From a phage: a stretch of 38,561 bases of DNA. A model generated the notes under the pieces. That model saw only the letters and a list, made by a program, of their open reading frames with translations. It searched no databases and was not told where the DNA came from. This document shows positions 2,461 to 38,177 of this stretch, piece by piece (the first letter of the stretch is position 1; every line of letters starts with the position of its first letter). The stretch lies in the sequence record PZ344858.1; one strand, given 5' to 3'. Both the position numbers and the translations under genes were made by a program.

Positions 2461-2687
2461 TTTATGCAGTAAGATTGCATAGGGATGCACTATAGGCCAC
2501 GGATGGTCAGTTCGTTAAGTTACTGAAAAGACACGAGGGACGAAAGGTTACTATATAGATACTGAATGAATACTTATAGAGTGCATAAAGTATGCATAGT
2601 AGTGTACCTAAAGTGACCTCTAAGAATGGTGATTATATTGTATTAATATCACCTTAACTTAAAGTCCAACATAAAGGGAGGAGACTC

Positions 2688-3076: not shown

Positions 3077-3221
3077 TCTCACAGTGTACGGACCTAAAGT
3101 TCCCCCATAGGGGTACCTAAAGCCCAGCCAATCACCTAAAGTCAACCTTCGGTTGACCTTGAGGGTTCCCTAGGGGTTGGGATGACCCTTGGGGTTTACC
3201 TTTGAGTGTCTCCTTGTCCCT
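3077..3221. repeat. Terminal repeat (direct terminal redundancy), present once in this circular permutation
   Basis: Begins tctcacagtgtacggacctaaag, the T7 left-end sequence as recalled; bounded by right-end unique sequence upstream and left-end unique sequence downstream; boundaries approximate. Confidence 0.5.
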
Positions 3222-3226
3222 ATCTG

Positions 3227-3360
3227 TTCAGTCTCCTAAAGTATCCTCCTAAAGTCCATCATCAAGCCAACACCAAAAGAATAACCTTAAAGACCCATCA
3301 AGTCAATCCCTATCTTAAAGATAATCCTAACGACCATCCTAACGACCATCCTAAAGCTGC
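3227..3360. repeat. Left-end array of short CCTAAAG/CTTAAAG-type direct repeats, including tandem atcctaacgacc x2
   Basis: cctaaag at about 3234, 3248 and 3350; atcctaacgacc repeated at 3324-3335 and 3336-3347; related copies also in the right end (about 2608, 2968, 2998) and inside the terminal repeat. Confidence 0.5.
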
Positions 3361-3415
3361 CTCGTTGTTACCTATAAAGAGATTATCTTTAATCATTGTC
3401 TTTAATCACTCCCAT

Positions 3416-3438
3416 TAATTCGACTCACTAAAGGGAGA
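3416..3438 (+). promoter_or_regulatory. T7-RNAP-type promoter at the left end (phiOL-like)
   Basis: taattcgactcactaaagggaga; 21/23 match to consensus TAATACGACTCACTATAGGGAGA; predicted +1 G at 3433. Confidence 0.7.
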
Positions 3439-3496
3439 TAAGACTACTTAAAGAGGACCAAAGAGAGAGATTAATCAAAATAATTTTAAAAGAGTA

Positions 3497-3526
3497 TTGA
3501 CTTAAAGGGTCCTACCGGTTTACTAT
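3497..3526 (+). promoter_or_regulatory. Host sigma70-type early promoter (A1-like)
   Basis: -35 ttgact at 3497-3502; -10-like tactat 17-18 bp downstream. Confidence 0.55.
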
Positions 3527-3625
3527 TCATCTCGTCAACGGGACAACGGCCCAAAAGCCACTCCCTGAGATACCGGGGTCAACCGGATAAGTAGACAGCC
3601 TGATAAGTCATACGAAAACCAGGCA

Positions 3626-9075: not shown

Positions 9076-9098
9076 AAATTAATATCACTATAGGGAAG
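9076..9098 (+). promoter_or_regulatory. Degenerate T7-type promoter (phi1.1 position)
   Basis: aaattaatatcactatagggaag: perfect -8 to +4 (TCACTATAGGGA) but the upstream CGAC core (-12 to -9) is missing. Confidence 0.35.
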
Positions 9099-12249: not shown

Positions 12250-12948
12250 ATGGCTAAGAAGATTTTCACCTCTGCTCTGGGTACTGCTGAACCTTACGCT
12301 TACCTCTCTAAGCCGGACTACGGCAACGAAGAGCGTGGCTTTGGGAACCCTCGTGGTGTATACAAAGTTGACCTGACTATTCCCAACAAAGACCCGCGTT
12401 GTCAACGTATGGTCGATGAAATCGTGAAGTGCCACGAAGAGGCTTATGCTGCTGCCGTTGAGGAATACGAAGCGAACCCGCCTGCTGTAGCCCGTGGTAA
12501 GAAACCACTGAAACCGTATGAAGGCGACATGCCGTTCTTCGATAATGGTGATGGTACGACTACCTTTAAGTTCAAATGCTACGCGTCCTTCCAAGACAAG
12601 AAGACCAAAGAGACCAAGCACATCAATCTGGTTGTGGTTGACTCCAAAGGTAAGAAGATGGAAGACGTTCCGATTATCGGCGGTGGCTCTAAGCTGAAAG
12701 TCAAATACTCTCTGGTTCCGTACAAGTGGAACACCGCTGTAGGTGCGAGCGTTAAGCTGCAATTGGAATCCGTTATGTTGGTCGAACTGGCTACCTTTGG
12801 TGGCGGTGAAGACGATTGGGCTGACGAAGTTGAAGAGAACGGCTATGTTGCCTCTGGTTCTGCCAAAGCGAGCAAACCACGCGACGAAGAAAGCTGGGAT
12901 GAAGACGACGAAGGCTCTTACGAAGAAGACTCAGACGGAGATTTTTAA
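12250..12948 (+). CDS. 2.5: Single-stranded DNA-binding protein (T7 gp2.5 homolog)
   Basis: 232 aa with acidic C-terminal tail ending DGDF; RBS aaaggag. Confidence 0.95.
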   Translation: MAKKIFTSALGTAEPYAYLSKPDYGNEERGFGNPRGVYKVDLTIPNKDPRCQRMVDEIVKCHEEAYAAAVEEYEANPPAVARGKKPLKPYEGDMPFFDNGDGTTTFKFKCYASFQDKKTKETKHINLVVVDSKGKKMEDVPIIGGGSKLKVKYSLVPYKWNTAVGASVKLQLESVMLVELATFGGGEDDWADEVEENGYVASGSAKASKPRDEESWDEDDEGSYEEDSDGDF

Positions 12949-13445
12949 TGCCACGCCTTAGCCGTGAGGCATTGCAGAAGAAAATTCTAGACAATGTGAT
13001 TCCCGATGAGAATGGATGCTGGATATGGCAGAAGTCATTCGGGAGTCACGGTTATGGAAACATTGCTACAGGAGGGCACCGGAATGAGACGGCACATAGG
13101 GTCTCACACGAGGTGTTCATTGGCGAGATTCCAAAAGGCCAGCTAGTCTTACACTCCTGTGATAATCGCAAGTGTTGTAATCCTGATCACTTGCGTAGCG
13201 GCACATATAAGGATAACAGCTCAGACGCTATCAGTAGAGGGAGGAACAAACTACCTCCGGTAATGATTGGAAGTGACCATGTTAATGCTAAACTGACAGA
13301 AGAAGAGGTACTTGAAATTTATATGTCAACCTTGTCGCAGCGTAAACTTGCAGCACTGTTTGGAGTCTCTCAGAAGTTAATTCATTGCATAAAGAGAGGT
13401 AAGGCATGGCAGCATGTTACGCAGCACGAGGAATTAAACGTGTAG
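12948..13445 (+). CDS. HNH-family homing endonuclease
   Basis: 165 aa; motif GCWIWQKSFGSHGYG...HRVSHEVFIGEIPKGQLVLHSCDNRKCCNPDHL typical of HNH_3 nucleases; ATG overlaps the gene 2.5 stop and the 3' end overlaps gene 3. Confidence 0.85.
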   Translation: MPRLSREALQKKILDNVIPDENGCWIWQKSFGSHGYGNIATGGHRNETAHRVSHEVFIGEIPKGQLVLHSCDNRKCCNPDHLRSGTYKDNSSDAISRGRNKLPPVMIGSDHVNAKLTEEEVLEIYMSTLSQRKLAALFGVSQKLIHCIKRGKAWQHVTQHEELNV

Positions 13446-14313: not shown

Positions 14314-14333
14314 TTGATTGTTCGCATCATTGA

Positions 14334-17135: not shown

Positions 17136-19292
17136 ATGATCGTTTCTGACATCGAAGCTAACGCCCTCTTAGAGAGCGTCACTAAGTTCCACTGCGGGGT
17201 TATCTACGACTACTCCACCGATGAGTACGTAAGCTACCGACCGAGTGACTTCGGTGCGTATCTGGATGCGCTGGAAGCCGAGGTTGCACGAGGCGGTCTT
17301 ATTGTGTTCCACAACGGTCACAAGTATGACGTTCCCGCATTGACCAAACTGGCAAAGCTACAATTGAACCGTGAGTTCCACCTACCCCGTGAGAACTGTA
17401 TTGACACACTTGTGTTGTCACGCTTGATTCACTCCAACCTGAAAGACACCGATATGGGTCTTCTGCGTTCCGGTAAGTTGCCTGGTAAACGCTTTGGGTC
17501 TCACGCTCTGGAGGCGTGGGGCTATCGCTTAGGTGAAATGAAAGGTGAATACAAGGATGACTTTAAGCATATGCTTGAAGAGCAAGGTGAAGAATACGTT
17601 GATGGCATGGAGTGGTGGAACTTCAACGAAGAGATGATGGCCTATAACGTTCAGGACGTTGTGGTCACTAAGGCTCTCCTTGAGAAGCTACTCTCTGACA
17701 AACATTACTTCCCTCCTGAGATTGACTTTACGGACGTAGGATACACTACGTTCTGGTCAGAATCCCTTGAGGCCGTTGACGTTGAACATCGCGCTGCATG
17801 GCTACTCGCTAAGCAAGAGCGCAATGGATTCCCGTTTGACACGAAAGCAATCGAAGAGTTGTACGTAGAGTTAGCTGCTCGTCGCTCTGAGTTGCTCCGC
17901 AAATTGACCGAAACGTTCGGCTCGTGGTATCAGCCTAAAGGTGGCACCGAAATGTTCTGCCACCCGAGGACTGGTAAGCCATTGCCTAAATATCCTCGCA
18001 TTAAGACACCTAAAGTTGGTGGCATCTTTAAGAAGCCTAAGAACAAGGCACAGAGAGAAGGCCGTGAGCCTTGCGAACTGGATACCCGCGAGTACGTTGC
18101 TGGTGCTCCTTATACGCCAGTTGAGCACGTAGTGTTTAACCCTTCGTCTCGTGACCACATCCAGAAGAAACTTCAAGAGGCTGGATGGGTCCCGACTAAG
18201 TACACCGATAAAGGTGCACCTGTGGTGGATGATGAGGTACTCGAAGGAGTAAAAGTAGATGACCCTGAGAAGCAAGCCGCTATCGACCTTATTAAAGAAT
18301 ACTTGATGATTCAGAAGAGAATCGGACAATCTGCTGAGGGAGACAAGGCATGGCTTCGTTACGTTGCTGAGGATGGTAAAATTCATGGTTCTGTTAACCC
18401 CAATGGTGCTGTTACTGGGCGCGCTACTCACGCTTTCCCTAACCTCGCACAGGTACCCGGTGTCCGCTCTCCTTATGGTGATCGGTGCCGCTCTGCTTTT
18501 GGCGCTGAACATCACCTAGATGGACTTACAGGTAAGCCTTGGGTTCAGGCTGGTATAGACGCCTCAGGTCTGGAGTTGCGCTGCTTGGCCCACTTCATGG
18601 CTCGATTTGACAACGGTGAGTATGCTCACGAGATTCTCAATGGCGATATTCACTGGAAGAACGCAATTGCTGCCGACTTAGCACCAAACGTTGCCCGTGA
18701 TAAACACAATAAGGAACACGACCTAATGCGTGATAACGCCAAGACGTTTATCTATGGGTTCCTCTATGGTGCTGGTGATGAGAAGACTGGTCAGATTGTA
18801 GGTGCTGGTAAAGAACGCGGTAAGGAACTCAAGAAGAAATTCCTTGAGAACACCCCAGCGATTGCCGCACTCCGAGAGTCTATCCAACAGGCTCTTGTTG
18901 AGTCCTCTCAGTGGGTAGCGGGTGAACAACAAGTCAAGTGGAAACGCCGCTGGATTAAAGGTCTGGATGGTCGTAAGGTACACGTTCGTAGTCCTCACGC
19001 TGCCTTGAATACCCTACTGCAATCTGCTGGTGCTCTCATCTGCAAACTGTGGATTATCAAGACCGAAGAGATGCTCGTAGAGAAAGGCTTGAAGCACGGC
19101 TGGGATGGGGACTTTGCGTACATGGCATGGGTACATGACGAAATCCAAGTAGGTTGCCGTACCGAAGAGATTGCTCAGGTGGTCATTGAGACCGCACAAG
19201 AAGCAATGCGCTGGGTTGGAGACCACTGGAACTTCCGGTGTCTTCTGGATACCGAAGGTAAGATTGGTCCTAATTGGGCGATTTGCCATTAA
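17136..19292 (+). CDS. 5: DNA polymerase with 3'-5' exonuclease (T7 gp5 homolog)
   Basis: 718 aa; family A polymerase motifs ([26 protein letters not shown]); near-identical to T7 gp5 except for a short insertion. Confidence 0.97.
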
Positions 19293-19305
19293 AGGAGGTA
19301 TACAA

Positions 19306-19662
19306 GTGGATTCGAAACACGTCACTGGTGCTGCGTCGGAACTACTTGTTGCCTACAAGTTTACCAAGGCTGGGTACACTGTGTATTACCCTATGCTTAC
19401 TCAAAGTAAAGAGGACTTAGTTGTATGTAAGGATGGTAAATTTAGTAAGGTGCAGGTTAAGACTGCGACAGCGTTAACTGTTGGCGGAAGTACGGCACAT
19501 CAAGTCAGACTAGGCGGTTGTGGTAGAGCGTCCTACAAGGATGGCGACTTTGACCTACTGGCTGCTGTGGTGGAAGATGAAGTCCTCCTGTACACATGGG
19601 AGGAAGTTAAAGGCAAGACCTCTATGTGCGTAGGTAAGCGCAACAAAGGCGTTAAACTATAG
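19306..19662 (+). CDS. 5.3: gp5.3-like protein
   Basis: 118 aa from a GTG start 7 nt after RBS aaaggagg; size matches T7 gp5.3 as recalled; the ORF-track version 19171-19662 overlaps the gene 5 3' end. Confidence 0.65.
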   Translation: MDSKHVTGAASELLVAYKFTKAGYTVYYPMLTQSKEDLVVCKDGKFSKVQVKTATALTVGGSTAHQVRLGGCGRASYKDGDFDLLAAVVEDEVLLYTWEEVKGKTSMCVGKRNKGVKL

Positions 19663-21327: not shown

Positions 21328-21365
21328 TAAACTCAAGGTCCAGGGGCCTTTATGATTATTACTTT
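21324..21365 (+). promoter_or_regulatory. RNase III-type processing hairpin (R6.5-like), without an associated T7 promoter
   Basis: gtgataaactcaaggtccaggggcctttatgattattacttt. Confidence 0.5.
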
Positions 21366-22644: not shown

Positions 22645-24261
22645 ATGGCTGAGAAGCGTACAGGTCTAGCCGAGGAAGGTGCTAAGTCGGTCTATGAACG
22701 ATTGAAGAACGACCGTGCCCCGTATGAGACTCGTGCTCAAAACTGCGCTCAGTACACCATTCCGTCCCTCTTCCCTAAGGACTCCGATAACGCATCTACA
22801 GACTACACAACTCCGTGGCAAGCTGTGGGTGCTCGCGGTCTCAATAACTTGGCCTCTAAGCTCATGCTGGCTCTCTTCCCTATGCAAACGTGGATGAAAC
22901 TGACCATCTCTGAGTTTGAGGCCAAACAGTTACTGGATGACCCCGATGGACTCGCTAAGGTTGATGAGGGCCTCTCAATGGTAGAGCGCATCATCATGAA
23001 CTACATTGAGTCTAACAGCTACCGAGTGACTCTCTTCGAGGCTCTCAAGCAGTTAGTCGTTGCTGGCAACGTCCTGCTGTACCTACCGGAACCAGAAGGG
23101 TCGAACTATAATCCCATGAAGCTGTACCGATTGTCTTCTTATGTGGTCCAACGAGACGCATTCGGCAACGTTCTGCAAATGGTGACTCGCGACCAGATAG
23201 CTTTCGGAGCACTCCCTGAGGATGTCCGTAAGGCTGTAGAAGGTCAAGGTGGTGAGAAGAAACCTGATGAGACCATTGATGTGTACACTCACGTCTATCT
23301 GGATGAAGAATCAGGGGAGTATCTCCGCTACGAAGAGGTTGAGGGTATGGAGGTCCAAGGCTCAGACGGGTCTTACCCTAAAGAGGCTTGTCCATACATC
23401 CCGATTCGAATGGTTCGACTCGACGGTGAATCCTACGGTCGTTCGTACATTGAGGAATACTTAGGTGACTTACGGTCCCTTGAGAATCTCCAAGAGGCTA
23501 TCGTCAAGATGTCCATGATTAGCTCTAAGGTTATCGGCTTAGTGAATCCTGCTGGTATCACCCAGCCACGCCGACTGACCAAAGCTCAGACTGGTGACTT
23601 CGTTACTGGTCGTCCAGAAGACATCTCATTCCTACAACTGGAGAAGCAAGCAGACTTTACTGTAGCTAAAGCCGTAAGTGACGCTATTGAGGCTCGCCTT
23701 TCGTTTGCCTTCATGTTGAACTCTGCGGTTCAGCGCACTGGTGAACGTGTGACCGCCGAAGAGATTCGGTACGTTGCGTCAGAACTTGAAGATACTTTAG
23801 GTGGTGTCTACTCTATCCTTTCTCAAGAATTACAATTGCCTCTGGTACGAGTGCTCTTGAAGCAACTACAAGCCACGCAACAGATTCCTGAGTTACCTAA
23901 GGAAGCCGTAGAGCCAACTATTAGTACAGGTCTGGAAGCAATCGGTCGTGGTCAAGACCTTGATAAGCTGGAACGCTGTGTCTCTGCATGGGCTGCTCTG
24001 GCCCCTATGCGCGATGACCCAGACATCAACCTTGCGATGATTAAGTTACGCATTGCTAACGCTATCGGTATTGACACTTCTGGCATCCTTCTTACCGAAG
24101 AGCAGAAGCAACAGAAGATGGCTCAACAGTCTGTTCAAATGGGTATGGATAATGGCGCTGCTGCGCTTGGTCAAGGTATGGCTGCACAGGCTACGGCTTC
24201 ACCTGAGGCTATGGCTGCTGCCGCTGATTCCGTTGGTTTACAGCCGGTCCAGATTGAGTGA
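22645..24261 (+). CDS. 8: Head-to-tail connector (portal) protein (T7 gp8 homolog)
   Basis: 538 aa, RBS aggaggt; follows 7.3 directly with no gene 7.7. Confidence 0.97.
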   Translation: MAEKRTGLAEEGAKSVYERLKNDRAPYETRAQNCAQYTIPSLFPKDSDNASTDYTTPWQAVGARGLNNLASKLMLALFPMQTWMKLTISEFEAKQLLDDPDGLAKVDEGLSMVERIIMNYIESNSYRVTLFEALKQLVVAGNVLLYLPEPEGSNYNPMKLYRLSSYVVQRDAFGNVLQMVTRDQIAFGALPEDVRKAVEGQGGEKKPDETIDVYTHVYLDEESGEYLRYEEVEGMEVQGSDGSYPKEACPYIPIRMVRLDGESYGRSYIEEYLGDLRSLENLQEAIVKMSMISSKVIGLVNPAGITQPRRLTKAQTGDFVTGRPEDISFLQLEKQADFTVAKAVSDAIEARLSFAFMLNSAVQRTGERVTAEEIRYVASELEDTLGGVYSILSQELQLPLVRVLLKQLQATQQIPELPKEAVEPTISTGLEAIGRGQDLDKLERCVSAWAALAPMRDDPDINLAMIKLRIANAIGIDTSGILLTEEQKQQKMAQQSVQMGMDNGAAALGQGMAAQATASPEAMAAAADSVGLQPVQIE

Positions 24262-24329
24262 GGTCTGGTCTCAAGGTTCGAGTCCTTGGGTGTCCCTTAG
24301 TTCTTTAAATTGGAATGGAGATAACAATA

Positions 24330-25253
24330 ATGGCTGAATCTAATGCTGATGTATATGCGTCCTTCGGCGTAAACTCCGCTGTGATGTCTGGTGGTTCCGT
24401 TGAGGAACACGAGCAGAATATGCTGGCTCTGGATGTTGCTGCCCGTGATGGCGATGATGCAATCGAGTTAGCGTCCGACGAAGATGAAACTGAACGTGAC
24501 CTGTATGACAACTCTGACCCGTTCGGTCAAGAGGACGATGAGGGCCGTATTCAGGTTCGCATTGGTGATGGTTCTGAGCCGACTGATGTGGACACTGGGG
24601 AAGAAGGTTTTGATGGCACAGAAGGTTCCGAAGAGTTTACCCCACTGGGTGAGACTCCAGAAGAACTGGTAGCTGCCTCTGAGCAACTTGGTGAGCACGA
24701 AGAGGGCTTCCAAGAGATGATTAACATTGCTGCCGAGCGTGGCATGAGTGCTGAGACCATTGAGGCAATCCAGCGTGAGTACGAGGAGAACGAAGAGCTA
24801 TCCGCTGCATCCTACGCTAAGCTGGCTGAAATTGGTTACACTAAGGCTTTCATCGACTCATACATCCGTGGTCAAGAAGCTCTGGTGGAGCAGTACGTAA
24901 ACAGTGTAGTTGAGTATGCTGGCGGTCGTGAGCGTTTTGATGCGCTGTACAATCACCTTGAGACTCACAACCCTGAGGCTGCACAATCGCTGGACAATGC
25001 GCTGACCAATCGCGACTTAGCGACCGTTAAGGCTATCATTAACTTGGCTGGCGAGTCTCGTGCTAAGGCGTTCGGTCGTAAGCCCACTCGTAGTGTAACC
25101 AGTCGAGCTATTCCGGCTAAACCTCAAGCGACTAAGCGTGAAGGCTTTGCTGACCGTAGCGAGATGATTAAGGCTATGAGTGACCCTCGGTATCGCACCG
25201 ATGCAAACTATCGTCGTCAAGTCGAACAGAAAGTGATCGACTCTAACTTCTGA
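24330..25253 (+). CDS. 9: Capsid assembly (scaffolding) protein (T7 gp9 homolog)
   Basis: 307 aa from MAESNADVYASFGV with RBS ggag 9 nt upstream; highly acidic; ORF-track start at 24315 has no RBS. Confidence 0.9.
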   Translation: MAESNADVYASFGVNSAVMSGGSVEEHEQNMLALDVAARDGDDAIELASDEDETERDLYDNSDPFGQEDDEGRIQVRIGDGSEPTDVDTGEEGFDGTEGSEEFTPLGETPEELVAASEQLGEHEEGFQEMINIAAERGMSAETIEAIQREYEENEELSAASYAKLAEIGYTKAFIDSYIRGQEALVEQYVNSVVEYAGGRERFDALYNHLETHNPEAAQSLDNALTNRDLATVKAIINLAGESRAKAFGRKPTRSVTSRAIPAKPQATKREGFADRSEMIKAMSDPRYRTDANYRRQVEQKVIDSNF

Positions 25254-25256
25254 TAG

Positions 25257-25526
25257 ACTCTCGCTGGCACCTCTCGCTCGGATGCTACCGGTCAGAAGCA
25301 CGCCTTCCCGGCTACTAAGAGCGGTACTGACAAGGTTGCTAAGGACAACGTTATCGGCCTGTTCATGCACCGCTCTGCGGTAGGTACTGTTAAGCTGCGT
25401 GACTTGGCTCTGGAACGTGCTCGCCGTGCTAACTTCCAAGCGGACCAGATTATCGCGAAGTACGCAATGGGCCACGGTGGTCTGCGTCCAGAAGCTGCTG
25501 GTGCTGTGGTTTTCACGGCAGCGTAA
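25257..25526 (+). pseudogene. 10: Remnant of the major capsid protein gene (3' end of T7 gene 10A homolog), without start codon, RBS or promoter
   Basis: In-frame translation ...TGQKHAFPATKSGTDKVAKDNVIGLFMHRSAVGTVKLRDLALERARRANFQADQIIAKYAMGHGGLRPEAAGAVVFTAA* matches the C-terminal part of T7 gp10A as recalled; preceded by TGA TAG. Confidence 0.8.
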
Positions 25527-25637
25527 TGCTGAAAGTGGCCTCAACGGTCGCTGCTAGTCCCGAAGAGGTGAGCATTACTACCGAAGAGAGTCTAACTCCA
25601 GCACAGAAAGCTGCACGCACACGCGCGCTCATACGAT

Positions 25638-26213
25638 ATGAACGTTGAGACTGCCGCTGAGTTATCCGCTGTGAACGACATTCTGGCATCTATCGGTGAA
25701 CCTCCGGTATCAACGCTGGAAGGTGACGCTAACGCAGATGTAGCGAACGCTCGGCGCATTCTCAATAAGATTAACCGACAGATTCAGTCTCGTGGCTGGA
25801 CGTTCAACATTGAGGAAGGCATAACGCTATTACCTGATGTTTACTCCAACCTGATTGTGTACAGCGATGACTATTTGTCACTAATGGCTACTTCCGGTCA
25901 ATCAGTCTATGTTAATCGAGGTGGCTATGTGTATGACCGAACGAGTCAATCTGACCGCTTTGAGTCTGGTATCACTGTTAACATTATCCGTCTACGAGAC
26001 TACGATGAGATGCCTGAGTGCTTCCGATACTGGATTGTCACTAAGGCTTCCCGTCAGTTCAACAACCGATTCTTTGGGGCACCAGAAGTAGAGGGTGTAC
26101 TACAAGAAGAGGAGGATGAGGCTCGACGTCTCTGTATGGAGTACGAAGTGGATTATGGCGGTTATAACATGCTGGATGGTGACGCGTTCACTTCTGGTCT
26201 ACTGACTCGCTAA
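25638..26213 (+). CDS. 11: Tail tubular protein A (T7 gp11 homolog), starting at an internal methionine relative to T7
   Basis: 191 aa [23 protein letters not shown]...; T7 gp11 begins MRSYDMNVE as recalled; no Shine-Dalgarno sequence upstream here. Confidence 0.85.
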
Positions 26214-28621: not shown

Positions 28622-28671
28622 TACATAATGTTCTCCCTGTGGTGTCAATACGACTACGGGAGGGTTTTCTT

Positions 28672-34900: not shown

Positions 34901-35933
34901 TCGCTCTCCGTGGACTAAGCTGCTTAATGGAACCACTAACTACCTTCTGGATGCTGCGCGTCAAGGTATGCTTGGGGACGTGATTAGTGCCACCCTAACA
35001 GGTAAGACTACCCGCTGGGAGAAAGAAGGATTCCTTCGGGGTGCCTCAATAACCCCTGAGCAGATGCAGGGAATCAAGGCACTCATTAAGGAACACATGG
35101 TGCGTGGTGAAGATGGTAAGTATACCGTTAAGGATAAGCACGCGTTCTCTATGGACCCAAGAGCTATGGACTTGTGGCGACTGGCTGATAAGGTAGCTGA
35201 CGAGGCAATGCTGCGTCCGCATAAGGTGTCCTTACAGGATTCACATGCGTTCGGAGCATTAGGCAAGATGGTGATGCAGTTTAAGTCTTTCACCATTAAA
35301 TCCCTTAACTCTAAGTTTCTGCGAACCTTCTACGATGGGTACAAGAACAACCGAGCGATTGACGCTGCGCTGACTGGTATCATCTCTATGGGTCTCGCTG
35401 GTGGTTACTACGCTATGGCTGCACACGTCAAAGCGTATGGAATGCCTAAGGAGAAACGTAAAGAATACTTGGAGCGTGCATTGGACCCAACCATGATTGC
35501 CCACGCGTCGTTATCTCGTAGTTCTCAATTAGGTGCTCCTTTGGCTATGGCTGACCTAGTTGGTGGCCTGTTCGGGGTTGAGTCCTCAAAGATGGCTCGC
35601 TCTACTATTCTTCCTAAAGACACCATGAGGGAGCGTGACCCTAATAAGCCTTATACCTCGTGGGAGGTAATGGGTAATATGGGTTCCAACATTCTTGAAC
35701 AGATGCCTTCGGCTGGATTTGTGGCTAACGTTGGGGCTTCCCTACTTAATACTGCTGGCGTGGTGAATGCTCCTAACAAAGCCACTGAGCAGGACTTCAT
35801 GACTGGTCTCATGAACTCCACAAAAGAGTTAGTACCGAACGACCCATTGACGCAACAGCTTGTGTTGAAGATTTATGAGGCGAATGGTGTTAACTTGAGG
35901 GAGCGTCGGAACGAAAGAATCTTCTCCCTGTAG
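31959..35933 (+). CDS. 16: Internal virion (core) protein D with N-terminal lytic transglycosylase domain (T7 gp16 homolog)
   Basis: 1324 aa; N-terminal SLT-like motif ESRFQPTAKSKTGPLGMMQF; RBS aaggagg. Confidence 0.95.
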   Translation: MDKYDKNVPSEYDGLFQKAADANGVSYDLLRKVAWTESRFQPTAKSKTGPLGMMQFTKATAKAMGLRVTDGPYDDRLNPELAINAAAKHLAGLVGKFDGDELKAALAYNQGEGRLGNPQLEAYSKGDFSSISEEGRNYLRNLLDVAKSPMSGQLEAFGGITPKGKGIPADVGLAGIGHKQKVTQELPESTSFDVKGIEQEATAKPFAKDFWETHGETLDEYNSRSTFFGFKNTAEAELSNSVAGMAFRAGRLDNGFDVFKDTITPTRWNSHIWTPEELEKIRTEVKNPAYINVVTGGSPENLDELIKLANENFEVDLRKSEAGLGAQLSAGIIGAGVDPLSYVPMVGVTGKGFKLINKALVVGAESAALNVASEGLRTSVAGGDSDYAGAALGGFVFGAGMSAISDAIAAGLKRGKPEAEFDNEFIGPMMRMEARETARNANSADLSRINTENMKFEGEYKGVPYEELPTEKGAVVLHDGSILSASNPINPKTLKEFSEVDPEKAARGIKLAGFTEIGLKTLGSDDADIRRVAIDLVRSPTGMQSGSSGKYGSTASDIFEKLRGTDQRTYNDLYKAMSDAMKDPEFSTGGAKMSREEARYTIERRVALAIENPELQKALTPNERIVMDIVKRHYDTKRELMENPAVFGNTKAVSIFPESRHKGTYVPHVYDKYAKALKIQRYGAEGLQEGIARSWMCSYDLRPSVKARIDEALKEMHGVEEVTHDMVYKYAMDKAYGISHSDRFTNSSIIEENIEGLVGIENNSFLEARNLFDSDLAITMPDGEQFSVNDLRDFSMFRIMPAYDRRINGDIAIMGSTGKTTKELKDEILALKAKAEGDGKKTGEVHALMDTVKILTGRARRNQDTVWETSLRSINDLGFFAKNAYMGAQNLTEIAGMIATGNVRALGHGIPILRDTLYRSKPVSAKELKELHASLFGKEVDQLIRPQRADIVQRLREATDTGPVVANIVGTLKYSTQELAARSPWTKLLNGTTNYLLDAARQGMLGDVISATLTGKTTRWEKEGFLRGASITPEQMQGIKALIKEHMVRGEDGKYTVKDKHAFSMDPRAMDLWRLADKVADEAMLRPHKVSLQDSHAFGALGKMVMQFKSFTIKSLNSKFLRTFYDGYKNNRAIDAALTGIISMGLAGGYYAMAAHVKAYGMPKEKRKEYLERALDPTMIAHASLSRSSQLGAPLAMADLVGGLFGVESSKMARSTILPKDTMRERDPNKPYTSWEVMGNMGSNILEQMPSAGFVANVGASLLNTAGVVNAPNKATEQDFMTGLMNSTKELVPNDPLTQQLVLKIYEANGVNLRERRNERIFSL

Positions 35934-37649: not shown

Positions 37650-38177
37650 ATGAAGACTTTACGTCACTATAAGAACTTCGTAAACTATATCCCAGAACGC
37701 ACCAAAGAGAATGCAGACCTTCTGGACCACGGAGTTGGCTTCTCAAAGGACGAGAATGGGAATGACTGGTATGAACTACGTGAGACATTCCGTGAGGATA
37801 CGTGGAAACTTGTCTATGCTAAAGATGGTTCGGTTATCCAGTGTGAACAGGATGTTCAGGAGTTAGCCGTGCAGGGTTCTGCTGGGGTAGTTGAACTTGA
37901 GGAAATCCCTGCTGAATACTCTCGTTACAATATGATGCAGTGGTGGTGGGACGGTGAGAAGCTCACTTGGTATCCGAGATACTTTGAGAACCAGAAGGCT
38001 CGTCTACTCTCTATGGCCTCCAAGAAGATTGAGCAGTATGCTGACTTTATGGCGCTTGGGGAGGAGGGATTAGAGGGTCTACTAAATGCGTGGCGAATCT
38101 ATCGACTTGCTGTGTATAAAGTGGACCTAAGTGTTCTACCTTTTTACGATTGGCCTGAGAAGCCTGAGGACTTATAA
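37650..38177 (+). CDS. Tail fibre assembly protein / chaperone (lambda Tfa-like)
   Basis: 175 aa with RBS aaaggag; C-terminal NAWRIYRLAVYKVDLSVLPFYDWPEKPE resembles lambda Tfa [27 protein letters not shown]; located immediately 3' of the tail-fibre gene. Confidence 0.8.
   Translation: MKTLRHYKNFVNYIPERTKENADLLDHGVGFSKDENGNDWYELRETFREDTWKLVYAKDGSVIQCEQDVQELAVQGSAGVVELEEIPAEYSRYNMMQWWWDGEKLTWYPRYFENQKARLLSMASKKIEQYADFMALGEEGLEGLLNAWRIYRLAVYKVDLSVLPFYDWPEKPEDL

Follow-up and report, generated by a model that had tools for sequence, protein, structure and literature searches.

The capsid gene missing from the T7-like phage genome PZ344858.1 was, in all probability, lost when vector-like spans were excised from the assembled sequence and their flanks joined. 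Almost certainly, the loss is not a real biological feature and there is no capsid-less phage here. The parent would be an ordinary viable T7-like phage (Teseptimavirus) that was assembled before cleaning, and the assembled sequence would then have been "cleaned" of supposed cloning-vector contamination by a screen of the VecScreen/UniVec type, applied presumably by the submitter, the sequencing provider or the submission workflow. Common vectors contain T7 pieces, namely phi10 from position -23 on, the leader of gene 10 and a T-phi fragment, and fusion vectors of the pET-3x/pSCREEN type also carry the first 260 codons of gene 10. A T7-like genome therefore matches these pieces wherever it is near enough to T7; the flagged spans would have been cut out and the flanks joined, an excision that would have taken most of the capsid gene, T-phi, the gene 11 start, the gene 8 stop and every near-perfect late promoter.

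The window, by which we mean the whole 38,561-nt stretch that was analyzed, is a wild Teseptimavirus genome, about 88-95% identical to anything known (88-90% to T7 and 92-95% to Yersinia phage vB_Yep_9). The phage collection holds no record near-identical to it and no intact twin; the best matches to its variable tail-fibre region are 84-91% identical at a coverage of 84% or less. Its ORF order is colinear with T7 and, outside the scars described below, also with the intact phages pO111 (OR204652) and EG1 (MG488277). Both the RNA polymerase gene and gene 3.5 (lysozyme) are intact, and the proposed screen would therefore have been one without some T7 laboratory clones. Four ORFs have no obvious T7 counterpart, encoding a tail-fibre assembly protein, an HNH endonuclease, a PD-(D/E)XK protein and a gp4.7-like protein. 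The HNH homing-endonuclease ORF and the PD-(D/E)XK nuclease-like ORF lie between core T7 genes (12948-13445 and 19171-19662), and the ORF 3' of the tail-fibre gene (37650-38177) encodes the tail-fibre assembly protein (Pfam Caudo_TAP, PHROG 136), an uncommon feature for T7 itself that recurs in Escherichia phage Bas103 and Cedecea phage Yanou. The window is a circular permutation of the T7 map, with position 1 at about the gene 18 region and the T7 left end near 3,080-3,530, which suggests raw assembler output with the terminal repeat collapsed.

Between genes 9 and 11, only the 3' end of the capsid gene is left (Table 1). The sequence confirms that the TGA of gene 9 (25251-25253) is followed directly by TAG (25254-25256), a double stop that the preliminary description of this DNA had taken to look construct-like; it is instead native, with TTCTGATAGACTTCG at T7 22,868-22,882 and also in EG1 and pO111. 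The frame from 25257 encodes 89 residues up to a TAA at 25524-25526. These residues had been assigned to the C-terminal end of a T7-type capsid protein, and the assignment holds: they match the Pfam profile PF21703 (Gp10A-like) at positions 199-279 of 279 (E = 2e-32) and, by tblastn, align at 94% identity with EG1 capsid residues 257-342, and the remnant is 95.7% identical to intact pO111 gene 10 at the nucleotide level. The remnant thus has C-terminal homology to gp10A, and with 89 codons only it falls short of a functional full-length capsid gene, which runs to about 345 codons, opens with a start codon and is served by an RBS and the phi10 promoter. The start codon, RBS and promoter of gene 10 are absent, as had been claimed, and the gene 9 stop stands directly before the remnant frame; gone at the first scar are the phi10 promoter from -22/-23, the s10 leader, the RBS and gene 10 codons 1 to ~257.

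The remnant is followed by a clipped 10B tail, which had also been recognized previously: the 10B-frame ORF (25526-25648) aligns with profile positions 1-35 of the 52 in PHROG 12582 "head protein" (E = 2e-17). The second scar removes the end of this tail, the T-phi terminator (its reported absence between the remnant and gene 11 is borne out by alignment) and, from gene 11, the RBS and the first two letters, "AT", of the ATG; the junction has a GC/GCGCT ambiguity. The next long ORF after the gene 9 stop does start at ATG 25638, but this codon had been mistaken for the start of gene 11 and corresponds to Met6 of gp11 (MRSYDMNVE... in T7 versus MNVE... in the window). Elsewhere in the window there is indeed no capsid gene: tblastn with the intact EG1 capsid protein returned the remnant only, and the ORF map leaves no spare slot of at least 300 aa for one. 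The alignment with T7 and its relatives that the preliminary description had called for placed the end points of the deletion.

Table 1. Coordinates of the gene 9-11 features and of all scars in the window
Feature	Position in window	Strand	Lost or retained	Basis
Scar at phiOR	2534..2535	+	~31 nt gone	Alignments
Scar at phi1.1A/1.1B	9084..9085	+	78 nt gone versus EG1	EG1 flanks 100% identical
Scar at phi3.8	14317..14318	+	~36 nt gone	Simulated score 32
Scar at phi6.5	21341..21342	+	30 nt gone	EG1 has 30 extra nt here
Scar at phi9	24246..24247	+	Promoter and natural gene 8 stop gone	Alignments
Gene 9 (scaffold protein)	24315..25253	+	Intact	PHROG 1052 "head assembly", E = 7e-111
Scar 1	25261..25262	+	~860 nt gone	pO111 alignment break 22,723/23,584, equal to T7 22,879/80 and 23,738
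Gene 10A 3' remnant	25262..25526	+	Last ~88 codons plus TAA	PF21703, tblastn, nucleotide alignment
10B frameshift tail remnant (-1 frame)	25526..25624	+	Clipped at scar 2	
Scar 2	25624..25625	+	~129 nt gone	pO111 23,947-24,075, equal to T7 24,106-24,229
Gene 11 (tail tubular protein A)	25638..26213	+	Without first five codons	PHROG 446 alignment from profile position 5
Scar at phi13	28644..28645	+	~32 nt gone	Alignments
Scar at phi17	35911..35912	+	~26 nt gone	Alignments

The anatomy of the capsid region had been read correctly, and eight further scars in the window had been overlooked. Compared with T7, EG1 and pO111, the window carries nine seamless scars, all joined exactly to the base and without Ns, and all nine sit at a T7 RNA-polymerase promoter or another T7 segment. 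At eight of the nine, the missing block belongs to the T7 pieces found in pET/pSCREEN-type vectors: phi10 from -23 on, the leader of gene 10 with the first 260 codons, T-phi, or a near-perfect promoter. The phi3.8 scar, for example, removes the promoter together with the "CCACAACGGTTTCCCT" leader that phi3.8 and phi10 have in common. Because the natural stop of gene 8 lay inside the excised phi9 promoter, the gene 8 product now runs to an artificial end (...LQPVQIE and a stop at 24247-24261, versus ...LQPGI and a stop in T7 gp8). Perfect-consensus T7 promoters number six in T7 and none in the window, which retains seven weaker promoters, each with at least two mismatches.

The two gaps in the gene 9-11 region correspond to T7 22,880-23,737 and T7 24,106-24,229, and they coincide with vector-borne T7 segments. 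In the plasmid collection, matches of pET-type vectors to T7 are confined to the stretch from 22,880/22,881 and to 24,102-24,229, and the fragments in pET3xa-barn36 map to T7 22,881-22,969 and T7 24,106-24,232. Fusion vectors of the pSCREEN-1b type carry the first 260 residues of gene 10, ending at T7 23,746 (PMC2095791), and gene 10 fusions are also made from pGEMEX vectors (PMC10693968). The same collection lists pET-type vectors under Ruficoccus, Staphylococcus haemolyticus, Aeromonas veronii, Micromonospora and others as if they were natural plasmids, and NZ_CP155630, a "Yersinia pestis plasmid" of 38,276 bp, is the genome of a T7-like phage.

We simulated a vector screen with pO111 as the intact proxy, chosen for the close identity of its gene 10 to the remnant. 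The mock vector, a stand-in for UniVec, consisted only of T7 22,881-23,746 and T7 24,106-24,228, taken from the fragments identified here, and was searched by blastn with VecScreen scoring (+1/-5, gap costs 3/3). Strong matches fell on pO111 at 22,724-23,254, 23,333-23,583 and 23,947-24,056, with other matches at phi3.8 (score 32), phi13 (29), phi6.5 (27), phi9 (24) and phi17 (23). The block missing from the window is pO111 22,724-23,583 (860 of 860 columns), and the simulated span is likewise 22,724-23,583; for T-phi, the simulated match at 23,947-24,056 compares with a missing block of 23,947-24,053 in vB_Yep_9. Under default BLAST scoring, the first match would run to 23,593 rather than to the observed end at 23,583, and the observed end therefore fits the harsh mismatch penalty of VecScreen.

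The scores also separate what was lost from what was kept. At all comparable loci in four affected genomes and two references, blocks scoring at least 23 have about 0 bases left between their flanks, and blocks with scores of up to 21 have kept their whole length. The lowest internal score that VecScreen reports is 23. The one exception to the threshold is phi1.1A/B, which was removed although the scores there against the mock vector are only 22 and 22. The mock vector does not account for the cut positions there; the scar, common to the window, vB_Yep_9 and AH67C600_Q5, leaves "AAATTAATA" joined to "TCACTATAGGGAAGACC", 4 nt away from where a simple collapse of repeats would put the cut. In VecScreen, the "strong" band of internal matches begins at a score of 30 (PMC5996228). 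Matches with weak scores of 23-24 were excised as well, which is harsher than usual practice and counts against a vector screen as the explanation. From a pO111-like parent, a 78-nt island in the middle of gene 10, where the longest exact run against T7 is 10 nt, would be expected to be kept, and it is absent from both the window and vB_Yep_9; either the parents had a more T7-like allele at this place, or the entire span was taken out at once.

The same pattern recurs in three other records. The gene 9/10 junction is spanned by one of 165 matching records (vB_Yep_9), and the phi6.5 junction is spanned in one piece by three of 175 (vB_Yep_9, vB_Yep_15 and AH67C600_Q5). Like the window, vB_Yep_9 (PV596790), vB_Yep_15 (PV596791) and AH67C600_Q5 (MZ833439) have scars at phi6.5, phi9, phi10/gene 10, T-phi, phi13 and phi17, lack any perfect T7 promoter and have a gutted gene 10; at about 91-95% identity to the window, they are nevertheless phages in their own right. 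By contrast, in T7 (NC_001604), EG1 and pO111, gene 10 has all of its 345 codons, T-phi is present and perfect-consensus promoters number five or six.

Where the records differ, they do so at the ends of their own matches to the vector pieces. On the left of the capsid gap, the window retains "...TGATAGACTCT" (after "...GACTCT") and vB_Yep_9 retains "...TGATAGGCTT" (after "...GGCTT", where "CGAAATT" would begin), and in both the cut falls where the genome's own match to the vector's "CGAAATTAATACG" would start. On the right, both resume one base after "...CACCGCTGGTGG", the last T7-identical run before the end of the 260-codon leader. Unlike the window, vB_Yep_9 keeps the gene 11 start and also phiOR, the latter with one mismatch. 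EG1 is intact at phi1.1A/B, where it has 78 more bases, despite flanks 100% identical to the window. Judged from these alignments, the cut points track similarity to the vector fragments and not descent.

In AH67C600_Q5 and vB_Yep_15, an island of ~80 nt (...NENITGLGSASVIETTQAK) is kept, covering gene 10 codons ~148-173 and lying, in AH67C600_Q5, within the segment MZ833439 21977-22168. It is the stretch between the two strong simulated matches, predicted to escape flagging, and has no nucleotide match to T7; a biological deletion would not leave just the vector-dissimilar piece in place. In vB_Yep_15, a further ~125 nt without a T7 or pO111 match lie between the gene 9 stop and the island (22806-22930), possibly a stretch of the parental gene 10 region that had diverged or been inserted. 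AH67C600_Q5 is a lytic phage taken through three rounds of plaque purification, with 3-mm plaques, 50-nm icosahedral capsids by TEM and one-step growth; its genome was assembled by a sequencing company with SPAdes, SSPACE and GapFiller, and the methods of the paper make no mention of a vector screen (PMC10194157). That no document records the use of such a screen counts against this explanation. A phage with normal capsids cannot be without a capsid gene, and the gap is therefore in the record and not in the phage.

Four other readings were weighed, and there is only a slim chance that any of them is correct. The missing sequence might have been lost at the level of reads, if those matching a vector or primer database had been filtered out or trimmed prior to assembly and the flanks then joined by scaffolding and gap-closing. 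Such a loss would still explain the coincidence of the missing blocks with vector-borne T7 segments, and the use of SPAdes, SSPACE and GapFiller by a company for AH67C600_Q5 is in keeping with it. We nevertheless regard it as improbable: nine joins are seamless to the base and without Ns, short-insert read pairs would hardly bridge an 860-nt hole, the isolated island in AH67C600_Q5 and vB_Yep_15 would not persist as a contig, and the cuts are local-alignment ends and not read or k-mer boundaries. Ordinary assembly collapse has possible substrates in the T7 promoters, which are 23-bp repeats scattered through the genome, but it would delete everything between two promoters and leave one of them, whereas here each promoter is excised singly and unique flanks are joined; nor is there a repeat at the right end of the first gap, which lies inside gene 10, and we give collapse next to no credence. 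The preliminary description had offered assembly collapse, or loss by assembly or trimming, as a fallback, which pointed in the right direction. Deletion through short direct repeats was considered separately and rejected, as the first gap has different junctions in different genomes and the mechanism does not account for all nine scars together.

Two further readings place the scars in the DNA itself. A natural defective or satellite-like T7 lineage could have lost its capsid gene and late promoters and be propagated by a co-infecting helper phage; taken further, the records would represent a T7-like family without a capsid gene, T-phi or class III promoters, parasitic on helpers, with the coincidence with vectors accidental. 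Lesions common to four genomes that are ~91-95% identical could be read as those of an old lineage, but they follow vector-fragment similarity and a score threshold and not phylogeny, EG1 is intact, and the junctions differ among genomes as alignment ends would. The lesions also destroy the gene 8 stop and the gene 11 start along with the late promoters, the gene 9/10 junction pattern has no match in IMG/VR, and AH67C600_Q5, which carries the lesions, is lytic, was plaque-purified in three rounds and has normal capsids. Such a lineage is extremely improbable, and a parasitic family matching vector pieces by accident is hardly to be credited. An engineered phage of the biocontainment or display type, deleted for gene 10 and supplied with capsid protein by its host, is suggested by what is lost, namely the promoter, the RBS and three quarters of the gene at its 5' end, a pattern like that of a designed knockout. 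Capsid-complementing hosts for T7 display vectors exist, and virion production then needs plasmid-supplied capsid protein. Unlike the window, however, capsid-complemented display and knockout vectors are constructs built on T7 sequence that contain cloning sites and have their late promoters intact. The backbone of the window is wild (only as close to T7 as given above), with isolated relatives from sewage; the sequence on both sides of the junction is native, including the TGATAG of T7, with no foreign or cloning sequence; and the eight further scars strip all strong promoters, which no design would do. We consider engineering scarcely tenable. A defective or engineered phage needing capsid protein in trans, as the preliminary description had proposed, is at odds with the wild backbone, the nine scars, the vector-tracking cuts and the viability of AH67C600_Q5.

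Excision by a vector screen, our preferred reading, is related to a recognized problem. VecScreen_plus_taxonomy (Schaffer et al. 2018, as cited in PMC10978663) addresses false vector calls on the natural source of a vector component. As in that problem, genuine T7-like segments match T7-derived parts of vectors and score bands decide what is flagged; the difference here is that the flagged spans, including internal and weak ones, were actually deleted from "complete genome" sequences, leaving a genome devoid of a capsid gene. We found no description of this artefact in T7-like phages in the literature. For data quality, the consequence is that at least three "complete genome" GenBank records, in addition to the window, lack the capsid gene and late promoters because genuine T7-like sequence was taken for vector contamination. 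Gene-content surveys, capsid phylogenies, studies of promoter/RNA-polymerase co-variation and genome-scanning pipelines would be misled by such records, which carry a signature suited to automatic detection: the genome is T7-like, a perfect promoter and T-phi are both missing, and what is left of gene 10 begins near codon 258.
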